A stretch of DNA of 64,000 nt from Myxococcota bacterium (lineage in GTDB: Bacteria > Myxococcota > Kuafuiibacteriia > Kuafuiibacteriales > Kuafuiibacteriaceae), in the NCBI GenBank assembly GCA_036788295.1, contig DAIQNR010000003.1:74211-138210 (forward strand), written 5' to 3'. Shown piece by piece: positions 9,981-61,304 of this stretch. The notes below the pieces were generated by a model. The model saw only the letters and a program-made list of their open reading frames with translations. It had not been told where the DNA came from and searched no databases. A program made the position numbers and the translations under genes. How positions within the stretch are numbered: position 1 is the first letter of the stretch; the number at the start of each line of letters is the position of its first letter.

Positions 9981-10242
9981 CCCAAAGCCAGGCCCAGGGA
10001 CGCGAAGCTCGACGCCTTCTTCGGCTCTTTTCCGATCCGCGACCTCGGGCGCGGGATTCGTCGGGCGAGGCCTTGCGGCAGCAGCGGTGACGGCCTAACC
10101 ACCACCTCGTGGGTGTTCCTGCCGTTTGGCTCACACCGAGTCCCATGAGATTTCGCTCGCCTATCGGCAGACGGCATTTCTTCCCCAGCCCGCGCCTCGA
10201 CCTGTTGCCGCATGGCGCCGCGGCGGCGCCGTGATGGCGACT

Positions 10243-33707: not shown

Positions 33708-35216
33708 TCACCCCCCGTTCAGGGTGTAGCGGCGGGCGTAGCCGGTCTCGAGGTCGGTGAGCGCGATCTCCACCAAGCCGAGCGGCGTCACCTCGTACTC
33801 CTCGCGGACCATGGGCCCGCAGGCCCGCCGCTCCACCGGCACCTCCCCGAGGTTGACCCCGGGCTGGCGCAAGCGGGGGTCGAACGGGAACGTGATCTCG
33901 CCGATGGCCTGGAGGCGCTCGTGGGGCAGCCCTCGGGCGTCGAGGTGGCTGGTCTCGACGAACCGGTAGCGCCCTAGGTTGTGGGCGGCCCGGTACTCTC
34001 GCTGGATGCGGGCTCGGCCCAGCTCGCTCTTCGTGATCGCCGCTTCACGACCGAAGATCGGGTCGAAGGCGACATCTTTCCCCGCCTCGAGCTCCCGGAA
34101 CACCCCGAAGAAGCGGGAGAGGCGACCGGTGACCTCGAAACCCGCGGTCTCGTCGGCGGCGATGGCGAGGCCGATGGCCACCGCGGCGGAGGGGTGGGGC
34201 GATCGGTGCACCCGGCGCCCGAGGTCCTGGCGGAGCCGCCGGCCCACCACCGGCAGCGCGCTGCCGCCGCCGACGACGTAGAGCCCGGCCAGCGGCCGGG
34301 ACTCGGCCGCCTCGAGCACCGAGCCCATCGCCTCGATCGTGCGCTCCACCAGCGGGAGGCAAGCGTCGTAGTAGTCGGCGACGTCGAGCCTGGCCTCGCC
34401 CGCCCCGAGGCCGAGCTCGGACAGGTCGAGCAGGATGCGCCGGCTGTTCGGGTTCAGGCCCTCCTTGGCCACCCGGGCCCGCTCGAACAGCTCGGCTCCG
34501 GCGGCGCCCGATGGCGGCGCCGCGCCCACCTGCTGAAGCGCCATCTCCACGAGGACCTCGTCGAAGTCGTCGCCGCCGAGCCTCGGGTCTCCGCCGGTGA
34601 TGACCACGTCGTGGTGGAGGTCGCAGAGGTGGACGAGCGCGGCGTCGAAGGTCCCGCCGCCGAGGTCGTAGACCACGACGTGCTCTCGGCGGCCGTTCAG
34701 GGTGCGTCGAAACCGGTGGGTGTATTCGAAGCCGGCCGCGGATGGCTCGTCCAGAAAGCCGAGCAGCGAGAAGCCGGCCCGCCGAAACCCGTCGATGGTC
34801 ACGAAGCGCTGGGGGCCGAGCGCATGGGCGGGGGTGGCGACCACCGCCTCGAGCGGCCCCCCGTCATCCGGGGCGTTCGACGCGGTCCGCAGCGCCTCGG
34901 CGAGGGCCCGAAGAAACCGGACGAGCACGTCCTCGATCGTGAACTCGGTCCGGCCGAGCCGCACCCGGTGATGGGGCATGACCCCCTCGCCGCCGAGCAG
35001 CCGCTTGAACGAGCGCACGACCGTCCAGCCCGGCACCCCGACCCGCTCGAGGGCGTCGAAGCCGAAGACCAACTCACCGCCTCGTTCGGCCAGAACGCTT
35101 GGGAACCAATCGCAGACCTCGTCGCTGTGGTTCGAGAAGCTGACCACCGGGTAGTTGCCCCGGTCGCTGACCGCCACAACGGTGCGCGTGGTTCCAAAGT
35201 CGATTCCTAGTCTCAC
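33708..35216 (-). CDS. Hsp70-family (DnaK-like actin-fold ATPase) protein, non-canonical short form
   Basis: MRLGIDFGTTRTVVAV (phosphate-1), VVYDLGGGTFDAAL (phosphate-2), YVVGGGSALPVV (adenosine motif). The product is 502 aa and has no substrate-binding-domain lid. Confidence 0.8.
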   Translation of the reverse strand: MRLGIDFGTTRTVVAVSDRGNYPVVSFSNHSDEVCDWFPSVLAERGGELVFGFDALERVGVPGWTVVRSFKRLLGGEGVMPHHRVRLGRTEFTIEDVLVRFLRALAEALRTASNAPDDGGPLEAVVATPAHALGPQRFVTIDGFRRAGFSLLGFLDEPSAAGFEYTHRFRRTLNGRREHVVVYDLGGGTFDAALVHLCDLHHDVVITGGDPRLGGDDFDEVLVEMALQQVGAAPPSGAAGAELFERARVAKEGLNPNSRRILLDLSELGLGAGEARLDVADYYDACLPLVERTIEAMGSVLEAAESRPLAGLYVVGGGSALPVVGRRLRQDLGRRVHRSPHPSAAVAIGLAIAADETAGFEVTGRLSRFFGVFRELEAGKDVAFDPIFGREAAITKSELGRARIQREYRAAHNLGRYRFVETSHLDARGLPHERLQAIGEITFPFDPRLRQPGVNLGEVPVERRACGPMVREEYEVTPLGLVEIALTDLETGYARRYTLNGG

Positions 35217-35519: not shown

Positions 35520-37211
35520 ATGCCCAACGTGACGTTTCGTGACCCCCAGGTCCGGCGCTTCGTTCGCGACCTCGGCCGCCTCGAGTCGGCCCAGCTCACC
35601 GACGAGAACGTGCTCCGCTTGCTCGCGGCGGTCGGGGACCGCCCCTCCCGCCGGGAAGGCGAGGTCTACGCCGACATCACCCGGCCCGGCCTGTCTCGCT
35701 CCGAGCAGCTCGAAGCGGCCCAGTCGGGGATGAACCGCCGGGAGCGGGCCGACGTGGCGACGCTGCTCGACCGATCGGGCCTCGCCATGAGTCCTGGGGC
35801 CCGGAACTTTCTCGAGGCGCTGCTCGGCCGCGCCCCGCTGTCCGCCGAGGGGCCGCTGTCGGTCGATGGGGATCAGAAGGACGGAATCCGCGGGCGCGCG
35901 CGCCCCGGGGACCAGGTCGAAGCCATCAACCTGAGCACCGCTCCGTCGGGGCGGCTCCATCTCACCGACACGGTGGTCATCGGGGAGGCGGGGCTGGATG
36001 GCCGCTTCGTCGGCCGACTCCCCGACCTGCGGGAGGGGGACATCGTGAGGCTGCGGGCCCGCGGCCCCGGCCGGACCCCCACCGATTGGCTCACCGTCCG
36101 GGCCTGGGGGCTCGAGCGTGCGGACACCCGAAACGCGGTGGTCAACCTGGAGCGGATGGACCTCGTCCTCCGAGAGGGTGGCATCGCCGTCGCCCACAAC
36201 ACCGCTCGGCCCCTGTCCGAACCGGGGGCCATCGTCCGGTTCGAGAACGCCCGCACCGGCAAGACCAAGGAGGTGACCGTCACTGAGGCCGGGTCTCTGC
36301 CCGAAGGCCTGACCCTCGACGGGCGGCCGGGCGACCGGTTTCGGGTCGCGGTGTCCGACGGCGCGAACAACCGAGATTTCCGCGAGGTCGCGGGCACGCT
36401 GGTCGCGCCCGGGCAGACGGCGGGCGGCGGGGCCCGGGACCTCCCCGACCCGCTGCCGACGAAGGGAAACCAGGGGCCAGACGGCGAGGCGAAGGTGCCG
36501 AAGGCGTGGTTCGAGGGGCCGCTGTTTTCGGACGGACCGTCCGCGGCCGATGTGCGGCAGGGGGCGATCGGCAACTGCTACTTCCCGGCCGCGCTCGCAG
36601 CGATCGCCCACGCGCGGCCGGACGCGATCCTCGAGGCAATAGAGCCGGTAGGGGACGACGTCTACCGGGTGCGATTCTTCGAAAATGGGTCCCGGCGCCG
36701 CCCGGTCGAAGTGGAGGTCGACGCCGACCTCTACGTCCGGTCGTTCGGCGGCCCGATCTATGGGAGCACGCCGAGCGGCGCGACCCGGTCGGGAATGGAG
36801 CTGTGGTACCCGCTCATGGAGAAGGCCTACGCTCAGTGGAAGGGGGGCTACGAGGCGATCGGCAACGGCGGGATCGCCGGCCGGGTCATTTCGGAGGTCC
36901 TCGGGGGCTCGTACGACTACGAACGGGTCAACCCGGGCAACGCGCACGCCATCTACCGGATCGCGTCGGCAGCGGCGGAGGCAGGGCGGCCGATGGCGGC
37001 GGGCACCCACGGTACGGAACAGGCTGAAATGTACGCGAATTCAGGCATTTATGCCAACCATGCCTACTCGGTGCTCGGGGTCGAGGAGGAGGGCGGAAAG
37101 CGGTTCCTTCAGCTTCGGAACCCGTGGGCCCAAGGAGAGCCGGGAAAACGACGGAAAAAACGACGGGTTCTTTCGATTGAAGCTCGAGGACTTCGTGAAG
37201 TACTTCAGTAG
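35520..37211 (+). CDS. Calpain-like cysteine peptidase (peptidase C2) with unknown ~330-aa N-terminal domain. The 3' end is frameshifted, and the true C-terminus probably continues to 37233.
   Basis: Catalytic triad context: QGAIGNCYFPAALAAIAH (Cys), ANHAYSVLGV (His), LRNPWAQGE (Asn). After an A6 run at ~37150, the conserved calpain C-terminal strand (…NDGFFRLKLEDFVKYFSSLHVARV*) continues in the next frame (track ORF 36685-37233). That frame's TGA overlaps the ATG of the downstream gene. Confidence 0.7.
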   Translation: MPNVTFRDPQVRRFVRDLGRLESAQLTDENVLRLLAAVGDRPSRREGEVYADITRPGLSRSEQLEAAQSGMNRRERADVATLLDRSGLAMSPGARNFLEALLGRAPLSAEGPLSVDGDQKDGIRGRARPGDQVEAINLSTAPSGRLHLTDTVVIGEAGLDGRFVGRLPDLREGDIVRLRARGPGRTPTDWLTVRAWGLERADTRNAVVNLERMDLVLREGGIAVAHNTARPLSEPGAIVRFENARTGKTKEVTVTEAGSLPEGLTLDGRPGDRFRVAVSDGANNRDFREVAGTLVAPGQTAGGGARDLPDPLPTKGNQGPDGEAKVPKAWFEGPLFSDGPSAADVRQGAIGNCYFPAALAAIAHARPDAILEAIEPVGDDVYRVRFFENGSRRRPVEVEVDADLYVRSFGGPIYGSTPSGATRSGMELWYPLMEKAYAQWKGGYEAIGNGGIAGRVISEVLGGSYDYERVNPGNAHAIYRIASAAAEAGRPMAAGTHGTEQAEMYANSGIYANHAYSVLGVEEEGGKRFLQLRNPWAQGEPGKRRKKRRVLSIEARGLREVLQ

Positions 37212-37232
37212 CCTGCACGTAGCGAGAGTCTG

Positions 37233-37619
37233 ATGGCGATTCCGCCCGATCCCATCGAGGAGGTGATCCCCGCCTGCGGCGCCGCGGTGCTGGCGGAGGT
37301 GCTCTCCGTGCTCGAACCACAGAAGCCCCGGCGGGGGGCTCCCGCGGCCACCGGTCCACAGCCGACCTCGGCGCCGACGCTCGCTCCTCGGCAGCTCGTG
37401 AAGCTCCGGATCAGCGAGGTGCTGTTCGGCGACGGGTTTTCGCCCGGGTCGGAGTGCGTGGTCGAGAAGCCGCCCGGGGCCTATTCGCTTCGGGTGGGGG
37501 TCGTTGGGCCGTTTCTTCTCGGACCCGGGCTGCCGGCCGAAGTGCTCGGGCGGTATGGCCCCGACACCTACCCGATCGACGAGCTGAAGCGAGCGGCGCA
37601 CCGGGCCGGTCTTCGCTGA
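37233..37619 (+). CDS. Hypothetical small protein, translationally coupled to the calpain-like gene
   Basis: The ATG at 37233-37235 overlaps the TGA (37231-37233) of the frame-restored calpain ORF, giving TGATG. Composition is reasonable (MAIPPDPIEEVIPACGAAVLAEVLSVLEPQ…). Confidence 0.5.
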   Translation: MAIPPDPIEEVIPACGAAVLAEVLSVLEPQKPRRGAPAATGPQPTSAPTLAPRQLVKLRISEVLFGDGFSPGSECVVEKPPGAYSLRVGVVGPFLLGPGLPAEVLGRYGPDTYPIDELKRAAHRAGLR

Positions 37620-37657: not shown

Positions 37658-39922
37658 TCAGGCGGGGACTTCGGCGGGAGCCGAACCCGCTGCTTCGGTC
37701 GCCTCCCCCAAGATCGCCTCGATCTCGGCGATCCGGGCCGCCCGCCGGGGGTCGAGCGGCCCCCGGGCGCTCGCGATCTCCCGGATGATCTCGAGCGCAC
37801 TCGTGCGGTCTTCGGGGCGGGGCAACAGGCGGGGGAGGGCGGCGATCGCCTCCTTGGGCCGGTCGAGCAGGAGCGTCTGCTGTTCCCGAATCAGCGTGCG
37901 GAGCGCGGGGGAATGAAGCGGGCCGTCGGCCACCAGCGGGCGGAAGCACTGCTTGAACGCGTTGAACCCCCGCTCATCGACCGAGTGGTCGGCCATCAGC
38001 ACGTACATGGTCGCCCGGAGCACCGCCTCGGGCAGACCGCCTCCGCCGAGCATCTCGTCGAGGTGTCGCCGCTGGCGGTCGGCCAGGTGGTCGAACACGA
38101 ACTCTCGGGTGGGACCGGGGTCGGGGGTCGCCGGGTCGAGCCCGAGCAAGCCTTGGGTGAGCGCGCCGCCGAACACCGCCTCGAACCACGCCTCGAGCGC
38201 GCGGTCCCGCTGGCTCGACCACGCGGAGGCGGCGTCGATGAGGCCGTCCACCGCTCGGCGCTGGGCCTGCCACAGGGGGTTGTCGTCGGCCACCGGGTGG
38301 CGGTGGCTGCGCACGTACCCCGCCGCCCAAGACAGGGGCAGGCCAGCGAGCCGCATGAGCGGGTTCTTCTGAGACCACAGGGTGTACCGAAGGCGCACCG
38401 GCTGGGCCTGCCGCAAAGCCTCTGCCCCCCGCTCGGTGGCGAGCCTTCGGACCACCGGCTGGGCGAAGCGGCGATACAAGGACGAGTTGACCGCCGAGAG
38501 CTTGGCCACCGCGGCGAAGCGGGCCGTGTTCTCGGGGCTGCGCCCGCCGATGCGCCGAAGGTCGTCGAGCGTGCGCGCCTTGAACTTCGTCGCGTACCGG
38601 CCCTCGACGTACCGGGAGTTTCGCTCGTCCTCCGGGATCTCGGTGATGACCGCCTCGTACAGCCCGGGAGGGAGCAGCTCGATGAGATCGATGTTCTCGA
38701 TGAACTCGGCGTGCTCCCGCTCGGCGAGGCGGCCGGACACGAAGATGCCGAGGTGCCCGACGTCCGGGTGCACGCAGTACACGATGGTTTGCTCGGCGGC
38801 CCGGATGTCCTCGACGCTGCGGTAGAGGTCGAGGATCCAGTTGAGGGCCTGCGCCGGAGGGGTGATGCGGTCCCCGTGGGAGGTGAGCACGACGATCGGG
38901 CTGCGGATGTTTCGGATGTCGATGCGGTGGCCGCTCGGGCTCCTCAGCTCGCCCCGGGAGAGTTTGTTGCCGATGAACAGCTCGCTCGAGATGAACCGGA
39001 TCTCATCGGCGTTCATCAAGAAGAAGCCGCCCCACCACCGCTCGAACTCGAGGAACCGCTCCGCCTCGGTGTCGATTCGCTCGTAGACCCGCCACGGCTT
39101 GCGCAAGTACGTGTTCGCCGGGTTCAGGCCCTCGAAGTTCTGAACGAGGTAGGCCCCGTCGAAGCGCCCGTTGCCGAGGTCGCTCGCCAGCTCACCGAGC
39201 CACGCTCCGCCCATCAAGCCCCCAAAGTACCGCATCGGGCTCGCCCCCCGGGGGCCATCCCAATAGGCGAGCGGGGTCCCGGCGAGCACGATCGGGCCTA
39301 CCTTGTCCGGGTTGGCCCCCCCTAGCAGCGTGACCGCCCACCCGGCCTGGCAGTTGCCGATGAGCACCGGATCGCCGTTGGCTTCCGGGTGCCGGCGCCG
39401 GACCTCCTCGAGAAACGCGACCTCCGCCGCGGTGATGTCCTCGATGGTCTGGGTGGGCTCGGGGTGCGGTCCAAAGCTCACGAAATAGCATGGGTGGCCG
39501 GCCCGGAGCGCCACCCCCACCTGGCTGTCGGTCTGCGAGCCGCCGATGCCTGGCCCCTGCCCGGCCCGGGGGTCGATGATGACGTACGGCCGCTTCGCGG
39601 GGTCCACCGCCATCCCCTCGGGGGGGATGATCTTCAGCAGCTGGTAGCTCGTCTTGCGGGGAAGATCTCGGCCGTCGAGGACCAGCTCGTAGTCGAAGCG
39701 GAGCACCGGCGGGTTTCCGGCCGCGTTGTGGGCCAGAAACTGCTGCCCTCGTCGGTGAAGCAGGTCCGCGTACAGGACGGCGCGCTCGGCGGCGTCGACT
39801 CCGTAGGACCAGACCGGGCGCAGCCAGGGGGCGGCGGCGTCGAGGAGGGCGAGTGGGGACGTATCGGCCATCGGTTGGGCCGAGGTTGCCACAACTTCAG
39901 GACGAATGCTGCGCCGCAACAA
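37658..39922 (-). CDS. DUF3141-like / PHA-synthase-like alpha/beta-hydrolase fold protein
   Basis: The 754-aa product has a nucleophile-elbow-like GNCQAGW and α/β-hydrolase-like segments (…VLAGTPLAYWDG…). This long architecture matches proteins often annotated poly(3-hydroxyalkanoate) synthetase-like. Confidence 0.55.
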   Translation of the reverse strand: MLRRSIRPEVVATSAQPMADTSPLALLDAAAPWLRPVWSYGVDAAERAVLYADLLHRRGQQFLAHNAAGNPPVLRFDYELVLDGRDLPRKTSYQLLKIIPPEGMAVDPAKRPYVIIDPRAGQGPGIGGSQTDSQVGVALRAGHPCYFVSFGPHPEPTQTIEDITAAEVAFLEEVRRRHPEANGDPVLIGNCQAGWAVTLLGGANPDKVGPIVLAGTPLAYWDGPRGASPMRYFGGLMGGAWLGELASDLGNGRFDGAYLVQNFEGLNPANTYLRKPWRVYERIDTEAERFLEFERWWGGFFLMNADEIRFISSELFIGNKLSRGELRSPSGHRIDIRNIRSPIVVLTSHGDRITPPAQALNWILDLYRSVEDIRAAEQTIVYCVHPDVGHLGIFVSGRLAEREHAEFIENIDLIELLPPGLYEAVITEIPEDERNSRYVEGRYATKFKARTLDDLRRIGGRSPENTARFAAVAKLSAVNSSLYRRFAQPVVRRLATERGAEALRQAQPVRLRYTLWSQKNPLMRLAGLPLSWAAGYVRSHRHPVADDNPLWQAQRRAVDGLIDAASAWSSQRDRALEAWFEAVFGGALTQGLLGLDPATPDPGPTREFVFDHLADRQRRHLDEMLGGGGLPEAVLRATMYVLMADHSVDERGFNAFKQCFRPLVADGPLHSPALRTLIREQQTLLLDRPKEAIAALPRLLPRPEDRTSALEIIREIASARGPLDPRRAARIAEIEAILGEATEAAGSAPAEVPA

Positions 39923-53209: not shown

Positions 53210-55567
53210 TCAGTACGAGGTCGGGGCGAAGTTCCAGGGATAAGAGATCACCACATCTCCACCCTTTGGGGACGGGAAGCGCCAGTTCTTCAGCTTGTCC
53301 ATCACGCACCGGGCCACCGCCGCGTTTTGGAGCGTCGAGTGCTTCTGCTTGATGTCCCCCGCCCGTCCGTTTTGGCGGATGGTCCACTCGATGACGAGCT
53401 TGCCCTGGAGGCCAGGGCTCGACATGAGCGCCCGCTCGAAGCAGCTGACGACCTCGTTCGCGTGTTGGTCGATCACCTTCGCCACCTCTTCCCGAGATAT
53501 GTTCCCCTGCGCGGTCACCCGGCTCGGCACCGCCCGGTCCACCTTGCCCCGCACGGCGCCCCCGCTCGTCTTTCCGATCCGCGCGAACCCTGGCCCATCG
53601 CGCAGCAGGTCGGCGCTCCCGCGGGTGAGCGGCTTGCCTCCGCCCCCACCCCCGAGCCTCACGTCCGACGAAGGGGCCTTGCCGATGAGCGCGCCCACCC
53701 GAAAGCTCGATCCGCCGGGGGTCGAGACCGCGTCGAGGCTCGAGGCGGCGCTGACCATGCTCGGCGCGCCGGGGGCGGCGTTGGCCAGCTTGCCGAGCGC
53801 GCCGAGCACCCCCGCCTTCTTCACCTCGGGGGCGGGCGCTCCTTTGGGCGCGGCGGCCGGGGGAGCAGGGCTCTTTCGTTCGATTCGGGCCGGCTTCTTC
53901 TCCGCTTTGGCCACGGGAGGCGGTGCCTTGGCCGGCTCGGGCGCGGGCGGCTCTGGCTCCGGCTCCGGCTCCGGCTCCGGCAGGCTCACTTCCACCGGGC
54001 GGACCTCGTCGACCGCGGCCTCGGCCCAAATCTCCCTCGGGGCTCCGGAGAAGCTGGTGGCCGGGGTGGTGAGGCCGAGTACGAGGCCGAGCGCCAAGTG
54101 GACGAGCACCGCCGAGCCGAGCGCGCGCGGCACCGGTCCGTCGAGCCGCTTTCCGGCCGGAGGCGGAACGGGGACCGGCGGAGGGCTCACGAAGCGCAGG
54201 TGGCACCCCAGGTCGCCGATGCGGAGGTCGAGCGACTGGCCTTGCCGCAAGCGGACCGCGTACGTGTCACCCTTCGTGCTGACCGCGTGGCCCGGGATCT
54301 TCAGGTTGTCGAGGGGGACCTTTCGCCCCTCGTCGAGCAGCACGCCGGCCGCGTCGCTCGGGAAGCGGACCTCGGCGAGCCCCGGAGCGAGGAGCCGAGC
54401 CACCCGCAGGGGGCGACCGATCCCCAGGAGGTGGGCCGAGCGGCGAGGCTTTTCGAGCAGATCGATCCGGCGCAGCTCGTCCTTCCTCGACGCGATGACC
54501 TCGAGCGCGTGGGGCCGCTCCGCCGGAGGCGCCGAGCGGATGAGCTCGAGCAGCGAAAAGCCGGGCCGCTCGAGCGCCTCCGCCTCGTCCTCGTCGAGGC
54601 CTTCTTCCTCCTCGGCCGCCAGCTGAGGGTCGAGTTCATGCGCGGGCTCCCGTTTTTCCTGCCGGCTCTCTGCCGGTGCGGGCTCGGAGAACGGGTCCGA
54701 GATGGGGCGCCGCCGCAAGGGCGCCTGCTCCGTTCGCTCGGAGGCGAACGCCTCCGAGAACGGCATCGCCGCGTACGGATCGGGCGCCAAGTCCCCGAGC
54801 GCGATCGCCACCGTCGCCGGTTCCTCGTCGAGCGGCTCGTCCGGCGTCCCGGCGGCGCCAAAAGCGGAGGCCAGGGCCTCGTCCACCGAGCCGTAGGCCT
54901 CGGGAAGCGCGAACCCATCGTCAGCGGGGGTCGCGAGGTCCGCTTGCTCCTCGAGCACGTCCTCGCCGATCACCGCGATCCGGTCGGACACCGCCTCGTC
55001 GAGCCCATCGAAGATGTCGTCCGACCAGGCCCGCTCGCGAACGACATCGGTGGGGATGCGCCGCTCGCCCGGGGTCCGCGGAGCGGAGTCCATCAGCAGG
55101 TCCGCGGTCGGCGCCGGTCGCGCCGGCCGAACCACGGGGCCCGGTTCGGGTGCGCTCTGCCGCTTCTTGCCCGGGCCCGCCGAGGGGAGCGCGGCGGGGA
55201 CAGCCGACGGGCTCGGGACGGCGGAGGGAATGGGGAGCGCCGAGGGTCGGGCCCCCACCGGCTTCGGCTTCACCAGCTTGAGCTTCAGCACATGGCCGCC
55301 GACGCCGACTTCGTCTCGGGGGCCGATGAAGCCATGCTGAACCCGGGCCCCGTTGACGCGGACGCCTCCCGCGGTGCCGAGGTCCACGACCCGAACCTGG
55401 TCGTCCTCCCTGGATAGGATCGCGTGCGCGTCGTCTACGGCGCCGTCGTCGAGGCGAAGGTCGGCCTCCTCGCCGCTGCCCACGACGAGCTCCGGCTCGG
55501 TGAAGACCTCCGAGCCGACATACGCGCCGTCGCGGAAGACGAAAACGTGGAGAACCGGGACCGCCAC
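53210..55567 (-). CDS. FHA-domain protein of the AgmX/PglI (GltJ/GltG/NfsG) type: FHA – second FHA-like – TM – Pro/Glu-rich periplasmic linker – AgmX/PglI C-terminal domain
   Basis: N-terminal FHA (VFVFRDGAYVGSEVFTEPELVVGSGEEADLRLDDGAVDDAHAILSREDDQVRVVDLGTAGGVRVNG). A TM helix AVLVHLALGLVLGL is followed by EPEPEPEPEPP, KAPPPVAKAEKKP. The conserved C-terminal block GNISREEVAKVIDQHANEVVSCFERAL…GKLVIEWTIRQNGRAGDIKQKHSTLQNAAVARCVMDKLKNWRFP is characteristic of myxobacterial gliding/sporulation AgmX/PglI proteins. Confidence 0.8.
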   Translation of the reverse strand: MAVPVLHVFVFRDGAYVGSEVFTEPELVVGSGEEADLRLDDGAVDDAHAILSREDDQVRVVDLGTAGGVRVNGARVQHGFIGPRDEVGVGGHVLKLKLVKPKPVGARPSALPIPSAVPSPSAVPAALPSAGPGKKRQSAPEPGPVVRPARPAPTADLLMDSAPRTPGERRIPTDVVRERAWSDDIFDGLDEAVSDRIAVIGEDVLEEQADLATPADDGFALPEAYGSVDEALASAFGAAGTPDEPLDEEPATVAIALGDLAPDPYAAMPFSEAFASERTEQAPLRRRPISDPFSEPAPAESRQEKREPAHELDPQLAAEEEEGLDEDEAEALERPGFSLLELIRSAPPAERPHALEVIASRKDELRRIDLLEKPRRSAHLLGIGRPLRVARLLAPGLAEVRFPSDAAGVLLDEGRKVPLDNLKIPGHAVSTKGDTYAVRLRQGQSLDLRIGDLGCHLRFVSPPPVPVPPPAGKRLDGPVPRALGSAVLVHLALGLVLGLTTPATSFSGAPREIWAEAAVDEVRPVEVSLPEPEPEPEPEPPAPEPAKAPPPVAKAEKKPARIERKSPAPPAAAPKGAPAPEVKKAGVLGALGKLANAAPGAPSMVSAASSLDAVSTPGGSSFRVGALIGKAPSSDVRLGGGGGGKPLTRGSADLLRDGPGFARIGKTSGGAVRGKVDRAVPSRVTAQGNISREEVAKVIDQHANEVVSCFERALMSSPGLQGKLVIEWTIRQNGRAGDIKQKHSTLQNAAVARCVMDKLKNWRFPSPKGGDVVISYPWNFAPTSY
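53946..53982 (-). repeat. (GGCTCC)n hexanucleotide microsatellite encoding the (Glu-Pro)n linker of the AgmX-like protein
   Basis: ggctctggctccggctccggctccggctccgg on the + strand. It translates on the minus strand to EPEPEPEPEPP in the periplasmic linker. Confidence 0.8.
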
Positions 55568-56205: not shown

Positions 56206-57561
56206 ATGAAACGACTGCCCCTGCGTTCGCCTCCCCTTGCCTTGACCGGTATCGCTGCAGCTCTGCTCTTTGCCGCGGCCCCGGCTCAGGCCCAAACCGG
56301 CTCCGGCGACGACGGAGGCGAGTGCTCGGGAGGGCTGTGCGGCACCCCCCTTCAATCCGGGGGCGGCGGCTGCGGCTGCGGCGGCGGGTCGATTCTCATC
56401 AACAACACCGACCGCGGCGACACCTACCAGTATGGGGACGACTACGACTCCGACGGGTTCGAAGACGACTTCGACAACTGCCCGTTCGTCTACAACCCGG
56501 AGCAGCTCGACGGAGACGGGGACGGGGTGGGCGACGCCTGTGACCTGTGCCCCGTCGTCGCCGACCCCCTCCAGATCGACACCGACAGCGACGGCCTCGG
56601 GGACGCGTGCGACCCCGACATGGACGGCGATGGCGTCCTGAACGCGGTGGACGTCTGCCCGCTGGTCGCCGACCCGCTGCAGCTCGACACCGACCTCGAC
56701 GGGCTCGGCAACGCCTGCGATCCGGATGACGACGGGGACGGCGTCCTCGACGGGCGAGACAACTGCCCGCTGTTCTACAACCCGGATCAGGTGATCCCGG
56801 CCGACGCCGAGGGGTTGTGCTACCTCGACTCCGACCGGGACGGCATCGACGACAGCGTCGACAACTGCTTCTCCGCGTTCAACCCCGACCAGGCCGACAT
56901 CGACGGGGACGGGATCGGCGACGCCTGCGACGGGGACATGGACGGCGACGGTCTCACGAACCTCCGCGACAACTGCCCACGGGTCGCAAATCCCGACCAA
57001 CTCGACACCGACCGGGATGGGATCGGCGACGCGTGCGACGACCGCCTGTGCTTCGTGGTGTGGCAGGCTGGCGCCGAGGACCTGCGGGACCCGAACCATT
57101 GCCTCGACCCCGAGCTGACCTTCACCGTGCTGTCGGTGCCCCAGGACATCGCCGAGGTGGGACAGAGCCGTCGCCTCCACATCTTCTCGAACCGAGAGAA
57201 CCAGCCGATGCGCTACGTATGGACCGTCGTCGGTCGGCCCGCCGGTTCGAGCGCCGAAGTGCAGCACCCCCGGGGCTCCGTGAACCAGTCCGACTACTTC
57301 GAATACCGCTACCAGCGGGACCGGGTGGCGAGCTTCACCCCGGACGTGCCCGGGGACTACCAGCTGCAGCTGTCGGCGGAGCTCGTGTTCGACGACCCGA
57401 TGTTCCCGGAGGTGACGTCGAGCCGGACCACCTTCAACCTCACCGCCACCGGTGAGCCGCAAAGCGGCTGCGCGGCTGCCGGCGGTCCGGTCCGGCCCCC
57501 GCTCGAGCTGCTGCTCGCCGCCGCGGGCGCCGTCCTGCTCCGGCGCCGCCGCCGGGCCTGA
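56206..57561 (+). CDS. Secreted thrombospondin-type-3 (TSP3) Ca-binding repeat protein with MYXO-CTERM tail
   Basis: Signal peptide [29 protein letters not shown], then ≥8 DxDxDGxxDxCD repeats ([33 protein letters not shown]…, [12 protein letters not shown]…). The C-terminus is [32 protein letters not shown]. Confidence 0.75.
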
Positions 57562-57666
57562 ACCAGGGCGCGGGCTTCGCGCGCCCCGATGAATCGAGGC
57601 TTGGGGCCGGTGAAGACCGGTGACCCGGGCCTTCTTTTCGGGGACCATGGTCCCCGGTCCCAAGCC

Positions 57667-59472
57667 ATGCGAAACCTCATCTTCGCCCTGCTGCTTCTCG
57701 CCGGCTGCACCCCCGAGACCCTTCGAGCCATCGACCAGGTGGAGGTTCGCGCGGTGGACGACAAGCTCGTCATCGAGGGCGAGGTGTGCACCGAGCCTCC
57801 GGAGCCGACCGACTTCCCGGTGAAGATCCTGTTCGTCATCGACGGGTCGGGGAGCATGCAGTTCGTCGATATCCCGTCCCGCCGGGCGCTCGCGGTGGAG
57901 GAGGTGATGCTCCGGCTCCGGGCGAACCCGAGCGTGTCGTTCGCGGTCGTCCGGTTCAACGAGTCGAGCGCGGTGCTCACCCGCCCGGGGACCGACATCA
58001 CCACGAACGAGCCGTTTTCGACCGACGTGTCCGGCGCATTCACCCGGGACCCGGCGGTGCTGGGCCAAGCGGTGCAGGAGCTGCGGGTGGCCGACTCCGT
58101 CACCGACTACCAGGGGGCCCTGTCCACCGCGTTTCTCATCCTCTCCCAAGACATGCTGGGCTCGCCCCGGGAGGAGCTCGCCCGGACGAAGTACGTGGTG
58201 GTGTTCTTGTCCGACGGGGACCCGTTTCCGAGTTGCTGCAGCCGCCGCAGCGAGGAGGTCGGGCTCTGCAACCGGGACACGAATCTGTTCTTCTGCGAGA
58301 ACCCAGACGCAATCCGCCAAAACCCTACCCAGCTCCCTTTTCACGAGGCGGGCGCCGACTACAACCAGCCGTACCAAATCTATGGCGCGGTCCGGGACAT
58401 CATGGCCCTCGAGGAGACGTTCGGGGCGGGCGAGATCCGGCTCCACACCGCGTTTCTGTTCGACCCCAACCTCGTCGAATCGCTCGACCCGGTCACCAAC
58501 TGCTACACGATCGCGGGCGTCAACTTCGTCTGCAGGGACGAGGCGATCGAGCTGCTCGGCAACATCGCCCGGATCGGGCAGGGCATCTTTCGCGACTTCT
58601 CCGCCGCCGAAGAGATCGACTTTCTCGGCTTCGACCTCTCGAGCGTTCGACGGGAGCGGGGGCTTCGAAACCTCTTCGTCGCCCACCGCTCGGCGACGCT
58701 CGACGACCGGTTCGCTCCGGAGCCGGACAGCGACGGCGACGGCCTGCCCGACCGGGTAGAGTTCGAGATCGGCTCGTCACGGACCGACCCCGACACCGAC
58801 GGCGACGGCTTCTCCGACCTGCTCGAGTTCCGCTTCACCCGGGGCGGGCTCGACCCGCTGGTGCCAAACCCTGGCTGCACGGGGGAAGACGACCGCCGTG
58901 ACGTGGACGGGGACGGCCTGCTCGCCTGCGAGGAGCGGTTCCTCGGCACCTCGGATCGGTTCTTCGACAGCGACGCCGACGGCCTGCCCGACGGGCTCGA
59001 GCTGCGGGTCCGGCTCGACCCCGCGGCCCACGACGCGCTGCTCGACGCCGACCTCGACGGGGTCCGAAACCGAGACGAGATCCGGGCCGGCACCGCCGTT
59101 CACCGGGACGAGGGCCAGGCCCGATCCAGCGTCGCCTACCGCAGCCGGACCGAAGACCGCGGCGTCGGCCCAAACGGTGGCCGCTGCTATGGGTTCGAGG
59201 TCAAGAACCTGCGCCTGACCACTCCGCTCGCCCGTCCCGGGGTCACGGGCAGCTTCGGTCGAAACGAGTTCCTCGTGTACGTCTCCGAAGCGTCCGAGGG
59301 CGACCCCGACGACCTCGCCCGGTTCAAGATCGGCTGCGCCTGCGCCCGGTACGTCGCGCCCGACTTCAAGGACCCGCCGCTCGGTCGGGTGGAGCTTTCG
59401 CCCGAAGACTTCGTTCGGCCGGAGGAGTTCGACCCCGCCATCCACTGCCGGGGCTGCGGAGACGCCCAGTGA
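57667..59472 (+). CDS. von Willebrand factor A (vWA) domain lipoprotein with C-terminal TSP3 repeats, paralog 1
   Basis: MRNLIFALLLLAGCTPE has a lipobox. vWA MIDAS context: KILFVIDGSGSM, DYQGAL, VVVFLSDGDP. It is Cys-rich, then carries DSDGDGLPD, DTDGDGFSD, DVDGDGLLACEE, DSDADGLPD repeats. The track ORF start at 57589 precedes the signal peptide. Confidence 0.75.
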   Translation: MRNLIFALLLLAGCTPETLRAIDQVEVRAVDDKLVIEGEVCTEPPEPTDFPVKILFVIDGSGSMQFVDIPSRRALAVEEVMLRLRANPSVSFAVVRFNESSAVLTRPGTDITTNEPFSTDVSGAFTRDPAVLGQAVQELRVADSVTDYQGALSTAFLILSQDMLGSPREELARTKYVVVFLSDGDPFPSCCSRRSEEVGLCNRDTNLFFCENPDAIRQNPTQLPFHEAGADYNQPYQIYGAVRDIMALEETFGAGEIRLHTAFLFDPNLVESLDPVTNCYTIAGVNFVCRDEAIELLGNIARIGQGIFRDFSAAEEIDFLGFDLSSVRRERGLRNLFVAHRSATLDDRFAPEPDSDGDGLPDRVEFEIGSSRTDPDTDGDGFSDLLEFRFTRGGLDPLVPNPGCTGEDDRRDVDGDGLLACEERFLGTSDRFFDSDADGLPDGLELRVRLDPAAHDALLDADLDGVRNRDEIRAGTAVHRDEGQARSSVAYRSRTEDRGVGPNGGRCYGFEVKNLRLTTPLARPGVTGSFGRNEFLVYVSEASEGDPDDLARFKIGCACARYVAPDFKDPPLGRVELSPEDFVRPEEFDPAIHCRGCGDAQ

Positions 59473-61304
59473 ACCAGAACCGGGGCCGGTGGGCGGCGCT
59501 CGTCGCGGGCGCGCTCTCCGCTGGGGGGTGCACCGATTTTGGGCTCTTCGTCGCCGCCACCGACGGGCCGGGGCCGTTCGACGACACGCTCGCCATCGAG
59601 ACCCGGTTTTGCACCGAGGATCCGGCGACGCTCGAGTTCCCGGTCAAGATCCTCTTCGTGGTCGATACTTCGCAGTCGATGAACGTCACCGATCCCACCG
59701 GAGGACGGCTCTCGGCGGTGCAGGAGGTCGTGGACAACTTCCTAGACGACCCGGGGACGAGCTTCGCGATCATCCAGTTCTCGGGGCAGACCAACGTGCT
59801 CACCCAGGGGCCGGACGGGGAGGACGGCTTCACCCGCGACCGGGAGGCGCTCGAGACCGCCATCGTCCGGCTCGGGGTGGCCGAGCAGCCGACGGACTAC
59901 GAGGGGGCGATCGCGAACGTGAACCGGGTCCTGAGCCGGGACATGGCCAACGCGAGCGAGCAGGCGCTGTCGCGCTCCCGGTACATCGTGGTCTTCTTGT
60001 CCGACGGGCTGCCCGACCCGGTTCGGCCGCCGACCAACACCCGCAGCTCCATCCTCCGGAGGGTCCGTGAGATCTCGGACCTGCAGCGGATCTATCGGCC
60101 AAGGGAGATTCGATTTCACACCGCGCTGCTGCTCGGGGCCCTGGGGACCGGATTTCGATGCGCCGACGCCGGTCTCGAGGGGGGCGTGGGGCGGTGCTCG
60201 GCCTTGAACACCGCTCCGCTGTGCGAAGCGGATCGCCGCTGCACGTGGATCTCGGTGGAGCAGGAGGCGACGAGCTTGCTCGAGGGCATGGCCGCGGCTG
60301 GCTCGGGCACGTTTCGGAGCTTCCCGAACGGCGAGTCGATCAACTTCCTTCGCATCGACTTCACGTCGATTCGCCGCATCTTCGCTCTCAAGAGCCTGGT
60401 GGTGAGCAACTTGAACGCCCGTCCTCGGTTCGAGTTTCCGCTCGGCATCGGAGCTGGTTTCGGGCGCGCGGTGGTGGACAGCGACGGCGACGGCCTGTCC
60501 GACGAGCGCGAGCTCGAGCTCGGGACATCGCTGACGTCCACCGACACCGACGACGATGGGTTTTCGGACCTGCTCGAGGTCCGCCTGTCCGCCTCCGGCT
60601 TCGACCCGCTCGACCCGAGCGACGCCGACTGCACGCCGGGGCTCGACCGCCTCGACACCGACGGAGACGGCCTGCTCGACTGCGAGGAGCGGTTCTTCGG
60701 CACGAATCGGAACCGCCCCGACGGCGACGCCGACGGCTTGCCCGACGTCGTCGAGCTGATGGGCGGCTCGAACCCGGTCGCCAACGACCTGCTCGCCGAC
60801 AACGACTTCGACGGGGCCCGAAACGGGGCCGAGGTGAGGGCCCACTCCGACCCGAATCGGCCCGACTCGGCCGAGCGGTCCCAGATCAGCTACCGGTACA
60901 GCATCGTCCGCCGCAGCCCCGAAGACCTCGCCCCGACCGATGCTCGGCAAGCGGTCCTGCGGGCGGGGCGGGAGTGCTACGAGGCCCGCGTCGAGAACGT
61001 GACCCTGGCCCCGACTCTGGATGGGAAGAACCGGATCATGATCTATGTGACGCAGGCCCCGTTCGACGACCCGGAGGACTTCGGTGAGCTTCGGGTGGCC
61101 TGCGTCGAGCCGTCCTTCTTTCCCCCGGACACCAGGCTGCCGCCGCTGTCCACGGTGTTCGTGCCCGAGTCCGCGTACGTGCGCCCGGAGGCGTTTCGGC
61201 GGTCGCTTCACTGCACCACCGGCGAGGTCCCGCCCCCCCGGGACGAGCGCTGCGTGGGGCCGATCGAATCTCTCGACCGGTCCTGCTTCGAGGAGGGCCC
61301 ATGA
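59469..61304 (+). CDS. vWA domain lipoprotein with C-terminal TSP3 repeats, paralog 2
   Basis: The GTG start overlaps the upstream stop (GTGA). The lipobox is LSAGGCTD. vWA motifs: KILFVVDTSQSM, DYEGAI, IVVFLSDGLP. TSP3 repeats: DSDGDGLSD, DTDDDGFSD, DTDGDGLLDCEE, DGDADGLPD. Confidence 0.75.
   Translation: MNQNRGRWAALVAGALSAGGCTDFGLFVAATDGPGPFDDTLAIETRFCTEDPATLEFPVKILFVVDTSQSMNVTDPTGGRLSAVQEVVDNFLDDPGTSFAIIQFSGQTNVLTQGPDGEDGFTRDREALETAIVRLGVAEQPTDYEGAIANVNRVLSRDMANASEQALSRSRYIVVFLSDGLPDPVRPPTNTRSSILRRVREISDLQRIYRPREIRFHTALLLGALGTGFRCADAGLEGGVGRCSALNTAPLCEADRRCTWISVEQEATSLLEGMAAAGSGTFRSFPNGESINFLRIDFTSIRRIFALKSLVVSNLNARPRFEFPLGIGAGFGRAVVDSDGDGLSDERELELGTSLTSTDTDDDGFSDLLEVRLSASGFDPLDPSDADCTPGLDRLDTDGDGLLDCEERFFGTNRNRPDGDADGLPDVVELMGGSNPVANDLLADNDFDGARNGAEVRAHSDPNRPDSAERSQISYRYSIVRRSPEDLAPTDARQAVLRAGRECYEARVENVTLAPTLDGKNRIMIYVTQAPFDDPEDFGELRVACVEPSFFPPDTRLPPLSTVFVPESAYVRPEAFRRSLHCTTGEVPPPRDERCVGPIESLDRSCFEEGP

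Follow-up and report, generated by a model that had tools for sequence, protein, structure and literature searches.

Why does a bacterial gene with a clear calpain-type catalytic core lose its reading frame just before that core is complete, with a small intact gene starting where the original stop codon lies? The locus that raises this question belongs to a 64,000-nucleotide stretch of DNA from a Myxococcota bacterium (GenBank assembly GCA_036788295.1, contig DAIQNR010000003.1, positions 74,211 to 138,210; hereafter the window) and consists of a 563-residue frame-1 open reading frame (ORF) for a calpain-type (C2) protease (35520–37211, forward strand) followed by a 128-residue partner gene (37233–37619, forward strand). 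An initial annotation of the letters alone had offered three explanations for the frameshift, namely a sequencing error at a homopolymer, a recent inactivating mutation or slippage-controlled expression, and the second of these is the best supported. The reading we favor, to which we assign a probability of about 0.68, is that the locus is a conserved protease–partner operon in which the protease gene has suffered a genuine 1-bp insertion and a recent, strain-level loss of function, with the partner as a candidate inhibitor. Under this reading, a two-gene operon conserved in Myxococcota would encode a protease of ~570 residues without a signal peptide, in which a helical N-terminal domain and two immunoglobulin (Ig)-like domains are joined by a linker to a calpain-type core of papain fold, and, 0–30 nt downstream, an OB-fold (oligonucleotide/oligosaccharide-binding) protein of ~125 residues with NTR/TIMP-like features that most likely binds the protease, the role of cognate cytoplasmic inhibitor being favored. 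In this lineage, a 1-bp insertion (A3 to A4 at 37145–37148) would have cost the protease its last 28 residues, and with them the two β-strands and the helix that complete the catalytic core in its second half, leaving a recent strain-level pseudogene beside a partner gene that has been kept.

Position of the frameshift

The 563-residue ORF carries the motifs QGAIGNCYFPAALAAIAH (QGAIGNCYF), ANHAYSVLGV and LRNPWAQGE, matches the Pfam family Peptidase_C2 (PF00648) with a bit score of 97.9 (cut-off 23.8; E = 7.5e-28), and belongs to a family whose profile finds calpain-8 in the PDB at E = 3e-22; given these two matches, we regard the calpain assignment as firm. The catalytic residues Cys353 (36576–36578), His514 (37059–37061) and Asn534 (37119–37121) are all read in frame 1 and are invariant in 30 family members. 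The ORF ends in GKRRKKRRVLSIEARGLREVLQ (...EPGKRRKKRRVLSIEARGLREVLQ) at a TAG (37209–37211). The +1 frame, open from 36685, continues as ...ENDGKNDGFFRLKLEDFVKYFSSLHVARV with the tail NDGKNDGFFRLKLEDFVKYFSSLHVARV and stops at a TGA (37231–37233) that shares its A with the ATG of the partner gene (37233–37235), and the family profile aligns this tail, from knDGff onward, to calpain-8 residues 299–322. The core is thus not complete in any one reading frame, its last 28 residues lying in the +1 frame as a remnant that, with the original TGA, occupies 37146–37233. ORF reading, Pfam and alignments to a near-identical intact allele, to calpain-8 and to orthologues agree with the initial annotation in seeing a frameshifted C2 protease gene, a conserved calpain C-terminal element in the neighboring frame, and an overlap between the original stop codon and the start codon of the partner gene.

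The site of the shift is another matter. A database search returned ~190 homologues of ~570 residues, nearly all from Myxococcota metagenome-assembled genomes (MAGs), the closest of which (P0001), 99% identical, reads QGEPGNDGKNDGFFRLKLEDFVKYFSSLHVARV (in short, GEPGNDGKNDGFF). The DNA that encodes it, locus L001, is 99.6% identical to the window; the aligned 2278 bp contain seven substitutions and only one gap, where L001 has one A fewer in the run 37145–37148 (GGGAAAACG in the window, GGGAAACG in the intact allele). The initial annotation had instead placed the switch in the A6 run at 37155–37160, deletion from which would restore ...PGKRRKNDGFF...; this run, which encodes G-K-N in the intact allele, is the same in both alleles. 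Because A6 is unchanged and the sole gap falls at 37145–37148, the event was an A3-to-A4 insertion, and the true restored sequence is ...NPWAQGEPGNDGKNDGFFRL..., as in P0001 and in the family consensus G-x-D-G-K-N-D-G-F-F. The frame is lost after Gly542, and the 563-residue product is made up of 542 authentic residues and 21 unrelated, highly basic ones, KRRKKRRVLSIEARGLREVLQ, which stand in place of the last 28 residues of the intact protein. A general caution follows for such loci: the obvious homopolymer was not the one that mutated, and the near-identical intact allele alone revealed the real site.

Among 80 homologous loci drawn from GTDB species genomes, 79 keep a single reading frame across the region, and we therefore do not take the feature for a chance pattern of ORFs. 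Their open frames are nearly all at least 574 codons long and include both the Cys motif and the C-terminal motif, and the homologues that we inspected end in ...RNPW-x-x-x-E-x-G-x-D-G-K-N-D-G-F-F... followed by 18–19 further residues. Orthologues ending at the frame-1 stop would, by the initial annotation's own account, have spoken against a frameshift; there are none, and all orthologues carry the C-terminal strands. The same annotation had proposed looking for the A-run in orthologues, which use GGC or GGG followed by AAG AAC at this site and have A-runs in none of the 80 loci.

These comparisons also bear on recoding, by which the A4 allele would yield full-length protease through +1 ribosomal or transcriptional slippage, either at A6 (AAA AAA C, 37155–37161) or at AAA-CGA, so that ...PGKRRKNDGFF... 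would be made under slippage-controlled expression. The site has features that would suit such a mechanism, since A6 begins 7 nt past the insertion, is the only place where perfect +1 re-pairing (of tRNA-Lys) could restore the frame in part, and would give a product that differs at only 3 residues; moreover, AAA is seldom used as a codon here (2.7 per 1000), just two A6/T6 runs occur in the whole window (70% G+C), and a Shine-Dalgarno-like AAGGAG lies at 37132–37137. However, neither A-runs nor a frameshift occur in any orthologue and the two-frame organization is not conserved, which leaves slippage-controlled expression with no comparative support, and the intact allele contains both the AAGGAG and the A6, the latter in frame, so that nothing points to A6 having evolved as a shift site. 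In addition, transcriptional slippage is not expected to be efficient on a run as short as A6, a rescue would yield a protein in which the conserved D-G of G-x-D-G is replaced, and no convincing stimulatory structure was seen in a minimum-free-energy fold that had no control and is itself uninformative. We consider recoding highly improbable as the explanation of this locus, though spontaneous +1 slippage at A6 could, to judge from the run itself, produce ...PGKRRKNDGFF... at a low level.

Recurrence of the allele and damage to the protease

Could the additional A be an artefact of sequencing or assembly, and the real gene intact? The change falls within a homopolymer, all of the sources are metagenome assemblies, and the same study also gave an assembled copy of the gene that is intact. 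Against this, the exact 128-residue partner sequence recurs on contigs of GCA_964504175.1 and of the Logan assemblies SRR3311151, SRR3311153 and SRR3311156, and all four contigs align to the window without gaps across 9.6–20 kb (0–7 mismatches) and carry the 563-residue frame-1 ORF. The A4 allele is found on at least two haplotypes, the window and locus L002 differing at 7 sites in 20 kb. Since three runs assembled separately and a second MAG haplotype all gave the same A4, and the aligned lengths contain no other indel, an error at a 4-nt homopolymer, the first explanation offered for this locus, is very unlikely. The run is, furthermore, just 4 nt long, and metaSPAdes-style contig names suggest short reads, in which errors of this kind are rare. 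The A3 allele is linked to 7 single-nucleotide polymorphisms in 2.3 kb and thus represents a different haplotype rather than a corrected copy of the same one. For these judgments we relied on identity across assemblies, as a frame plot of G+C content at third codon positions proved too noisy to reveal whether the window holds further frameshifts.

That A3 and A4 were both recovered from what is apparently one study might also point to phase variation, with reversible A3/A4 switching turning the protease on and off within the population. Contingency loci are recognized by long homopolymer or repeat tracts, usually of at least 7 nt, and the run of 3–4 nt here (A3 or A4 only) is far below that length; the linkage of A3 to seven further substitutions again marks it as a distinct haplotype, whereas a switch would leave the background unchanged. 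Phase variation is, in our estimation, extremely improbable. An exact-pattern scan of JGI metagenomes for the A3 and A4 alleles returned no match to either.

Several points weigh against our reading of the allele. The intact allele comes from a MAG labelled SRP072547_co1_320, and SRP072547 is listed in a preprint among Lake Alchichica microbialite data sets; we take the three SRR runs to be independent libraries of that study on the basis of their accession range and near-identical contigs, which is an assumption. The evidence for the allele consists of assembled contigs. The contig with the intact allele, CAZIXN010000026.1 (L001/L006), matches the window only from 35652 onward: its homology begins after a GGTGGGGGGAGGGGGGTGGG poly-G/G-rich junction at locus positions ~9990–10030, the other genes there are unrelated, and its MAG was binned and labelled as Phycisphaera. 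It is probably a chimeric co-assembly contig, and this, together with the direction of its differences, from A or T in the window to G or C in the intact allele at six of the seven substitutions (the remaining one is G versus C), leaves the quality of the intact allele not beyond doubt. The same direction, on these small numbers, fits ordinary mutation pressure in a G+C-rich genome and a derived, possibly decaying allele in the window.

What the insertion would do to the protein can be gauged from the AlphaFold2 (AF2) model of the restored protease. The model predicts an all-helical N-terminal domain at residues 1–101 (35520–35822; predicted local distance difference test, pLDDT, ~80–90), two Ig-like β-sandwich domains at residues 114–194 and 213–295 (35859–36404), a linker, and a core with the two-subdomain calpain fold at residues 330–570, of which residues 330–542 (36507–37145) are retained in the window, all on the forward strand. 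A Pfam scan of the protease returned PF00648 only and hence no calcium-binding accessory domain of the C2-like or penta-EF-hand type, a hydrophobicity check indicated no signal peptide, and searches of NCBIfam and PADLOC gave no match for either the protease or its partner. The lost segment corresponds, in the alignment with calpain-8, to the terminal element of the calpain core. It is modelled with a pLDDT of ~91 as a strand (550–554), a helix (555–561) and a second strand (562–568), and in the family alignment it holds the invariant positions G545, D548, G549 and F551 and the nearly invariant N547 and F558.

These features have to be set against the possibility that the truncated protein remains proteolytically active, or has gained a new function with its altered, basic C-terminus, in which case the mutation would be neutral or adaptive. 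The product keeps Cys353, His514 and Asn534 and 542 of 570 residues, the allele is dominant in several samples, and the position of the whole catalytic triad upstream of the shift, which counts against our own reading, means that residual activity is possible. Nevertheless, the missing 28 residues take with them the four invariant and two nearly invariant positions, they form core strands both in the model and in calpain-8, and all ~80 orthologues keep this element. The insertion also co-occurs with a substitution at a conserved site, R330W, where the window allele has W and the intact allele and at least 90% of the family have R. We therefore judge a functional truncated enzyme unlikely. The product of the A4 allele is most likely an unstable or inactive enzyme, and the locus most likely represents a recent loss-of-function allele that is dominant in the sampled population or fixed in its dominant strain.

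The partner gene and its predicted fold

The partner gene is itself intact and starts 21 nt past the new protease stop. Its homologues lie directly downstream of the protease in 70 of the 78 genome loci that could be assessed, mostly 2–30 nt away (about 0–30 nt overall). In a scan of JGI metagenomes from the partner side, the protease gene ended immediately ahead of the partner in ~46 of the 53 loci that could be assessed, with a few orphan partners, and a rough clustering of ORFs from 80 loci, antisense ORFs included, revealed no universal neighbor other than the partner. The pair accordingly has the layout of a protease–inhibitor operon, in which a small gene is adjacent to, co-oriented with and conserved alongside the protease. 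The pairing has exceptions, which count against it: eight protease loci are without the partner (L032, L073, L074, L076, L077, L079, L080 and L083), and orphan partner genes with no protease occur in L102 and L130.

Some of these loci depart from the common arrangement in other ways. In L077, a 321-residue hydrophobic protein overlaps the protease stop in place of the partner, L072 has a second, truncated protease copy in tandem, and L128 has two full tandem proteases followed by one partner. In L065 (1653–3779), an inserted nucleotide six codons ahead of the stop joins protease and partner in a 708-residue ORF, and P0203 (702 residues) loses the frame upstream of the catalytic His and likewise continues into the partner. 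Both may be errors or pseudogenes, and as products of frameshifts we rejected them as "Rosetta stone" evidence for an interaction.

The partner family is small, with 158 representatives among 1.84 billion proteins, and, as the initial annotation had stated, its 128-residue member here has no recognizable domain at the level of sequence, no Pfam family being matched. Three elements are invariant, namely M-A-x-P-P-x-P at the N-terminus, a stretch K-P...Y...G..G-P-F, and G-R-Y-G-P-D; the window protein begins MAIPPDPIEE and, by a simple hydrophobicity check, has no signal-like segment at its N-terminus. The AF2 model (pLDDT 84) is a five-stranded OB barrel with a helix at each end, N- and C-terminal, which is the arrangement that defines the NTR/TIMP fold, and a Foldseek search with it ranked agrin NtA first (E = 8e-4, TM score 0.65), followed by C3, meteorin, TIMP-1 and TIMP-2. 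Sequence comparisons give no link to this group: the partner family matched neither the Pfam NTR nor the TIMP model even at E = 10 (NtA was reached by 1 of 48 sequences, at E = 0.25), hhalign of the partner against a verified N-TIMP-1 sequence gave a probability of 0.3%, a PDB profile search with the partner found nothing relevant, the 48-sequence partner alignment has no invariant Cys and lacks both the NTR cysteines and TIMP Cys1, and the partner has no signal peptide of the kind expected for a secreted or extracellular protein. We conclude from the model that the partner has a predicted NTR/TIMP architecture, and it should not be filed as a member of the NTR/TIMP family.

TIMPs inhibit their targets through the extreme N-terminus (C-T-C-V-P-P-H-P), which enters the cleft of the protease. 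The invariant A-I-P-P-E-P of the partner is in the equivalent place topologically, ahead of helix 1 and strand A, and on account of this position, and of its being encoded beside a papain-fold protease as staphostatins are, we prefer the role of a cognate cytoplasmic inhibitor, to which we give somewhat less than even odds. The initial annotation had proposed a cognate regulator or inhibitor, and the conserved pairing and the predicted fold lend that proposal indirect support.

The partner might instead serve the protease in another capacity, as a substrate, as an activating subunit or adaptor (compare the small subunit of classical calpains), or as a folding helper, and this we regard as a serious contender. 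Co-location and fold are what is known of it, NTR modules include the non-inhibitory agrin NtA, its best match, and PCOLCE, some protease loci are without a partner, and two frameshift-generated protease–partner fusions exist. Inhibition, by contrast, is favored by an invariant, Pro-rich, free N-terminus that precedes a helix and strand A in register with the inhibitory N-terminus of TIMP-1, a register that comes from a non-significant hhalign alignment and is only suggestive. It would also agree with the existence in bacteria of operons for a protease and a small cytoplasmic inhibitor, such as staphopain–staphostatin, and with one relative in which a partner-like domain is fused to a serpin. 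In that protein (P0289, at 4814–6478 of L086), a partner-like N-terminal domain (E = 7e-17) precedes a full serpin (Pfam E = 7e-23). It is encoded on a single contig with a BTAD/AAA_16 regulator upstream and no calpain gene nearby, its relatives are stand-alone serpins, and two other serpin contexts that we examined have no partner-like gene; we treat the fusion as a lead only.

A more ambitious version of the inhibitor reading is that the partner founds a bacterial, cytoplasmic, disulfide-free family of NTR/TIMP architecture, which would inhibit the protease by inserting its Pro-rich N-terminus (A-I-P-P-E-P) into the active-site cleft and would thus do in a prokaryote what calpastatin does, on a TIMP-like scaffold. 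The protease linker carries a near-invariant D-L-P-D-P (residues 307–311; 36438–36452) ahead of the catalytic core, and by its letters this motif seems to resemble the A-I-P-P-[ED]-P N-terminus of the partner. The motif might act as an internal segment for auto-inhibition or processing and, on the ambitious version, be an auto-inhibitory copy of the partner's N-terminus, with the frameshifted allele marking a natural "inhibitor-only" strain. We hold this version to be doubtful as a whole. Within a limited library, the literature yielded nothing relevant on bacterial NTR/TIMP-like proteins or on a myxobacterial calpain with an inhibitor, which is no proof of novelty.

Surroundings and comparison with known systems

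The protease–partner pair lies between a divergent gene for an Hsp70-like protein of 502 residues (33708–35216, reverse strand; Pfam HSP70, E = 4e-32) and a convergent gene for a DUF3141 protein (37658–39922, reverse strand; Pfam E = 1.7e-239), which ends 38 nt beyond the partner gene; a promoter and terminator scan, otherwise uninformative, found no terminator-like site between the two. The Hsp70 match covers the first 359 of the 502 residues, and the C-terminal part has no assignment. In 15 loci of a second paralogue clade (L044, L046, L052, L057, L058, L060, L063, L065, L068, L070, L071, L078, L081, L082 and L084), an Hsp70-like gene stands immediately upstream of the protease–partner pair on the same strand; the Hsp70-like protein of the window is ~31% identical to those, and its gene has the matching position but is divergently oriented. 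A functional link of the Hsp70-like gene to the protease–partner unit, or membership in it, is possible and uncertain. Farther off, 56206–61301 and 53210–55567 (the latter on the reverse strand) encode a cell-cohesion protein of the MtsC MYXO-CTERM type (NCBIfam E = 6e-163), two proteins resembling MtsD and an FHA protein that bears an AgmX/PglI tail; by these genes the window belongs to Myxococcota.

As a frameshift, the event is ordinary and most likely adds one more strain-level pseudogene. With programmed +1 frameshifting of the prfB type and slippage at A-runs the locus shares an A-rich site, rare codons and an upstream Shine-Dalgarno-like sequence, but it lacks their conservation across orthologues, and comparison with a near-identical intact allele traces its shift to a 1-bp insertion. 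The part worth following is the conserved, uncharacterized pairing of a calpain-type protease with an NTR/TIMP-like partner, which is compact and directly clonable, and for which the natural knockout in the Alchichica population would provide a built-in comparison.

The protease shares with the core of eukaryotic calpains (CysPc, C2; calpain-1, -8 and -9) the papain-like two-subdomain organization, the motifs QG-x-x-G-x-C, H-x-Y and R-N-P-W, and the terminal D-G-x-F...F element. Unlike them, it has neither C2-like nor penta-EF-hand domains, is ~22 residues shorter between NPW and DGxF, begins with a helical domain and two Ig-like domains, and, in the window, has its last core element out of frame. 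Bacterial C2 homologues have been surveyed as proteins whose peptidase domain is usually C-terminal, without calcium-binding domains and with varied accessory domains, patchily distributed and arguably none of them characterized (Rawlings 2015, PMC4631099). The window protease agrees with these in its C-terminal peptidase domain and its lack of calcium-binding domains, whereas the Myxococcota clade described here differs from the surveyed homologues in having no signal peptide and a dedicated small partner gene; the myxobacterial terms that we looked for have 0 occurrences in that survey (PMC4631099).

For the partner, the predicted five-stranded OB barrel with flanking helices is common to NTR/TIMP modules (agrin NtA, PCOLCE NTR, complement C345C, N-TIMP-1 and -3), and the C-T-C-V-P-P-H-P of TIMP-1 and the N-terminus of the partner both present an extended hydrophobic-P-P-x-P at the extreme N-terminus, in the register of the non-significant hhalign alignment. 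In contrast to those modules, the partner has no sequence homology to the group, no conserved cysteines or disulfides, no N-terminal Cys and no signal peptide, is bacterial and cytoplasmic, and has as its presumed target a cysteine protease rather than a metzincin. In its gene order the pair resembles the staphopain–staphostatin system, in which the gene for a papain-fold cysteine protease is followed by a co-transcribed gene for a small cytoplasmic inhibitor with no signal peptide, and in both cases the papain-fold protease gene directly precedes the small gene. Staphostatins, however, are eight-stranded lipocalin-like barrels, a fold unlike that of the partner, and staphopains are secreted pro-enzymes; staphostatins do inhibit their proteases, as we suggest the partner may. 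If it does, inhibition in the style of TIMPs would extend to cysteine proteases and to bacteria, and the partner would offer a first handle on the regulation of a bacterial calpain.

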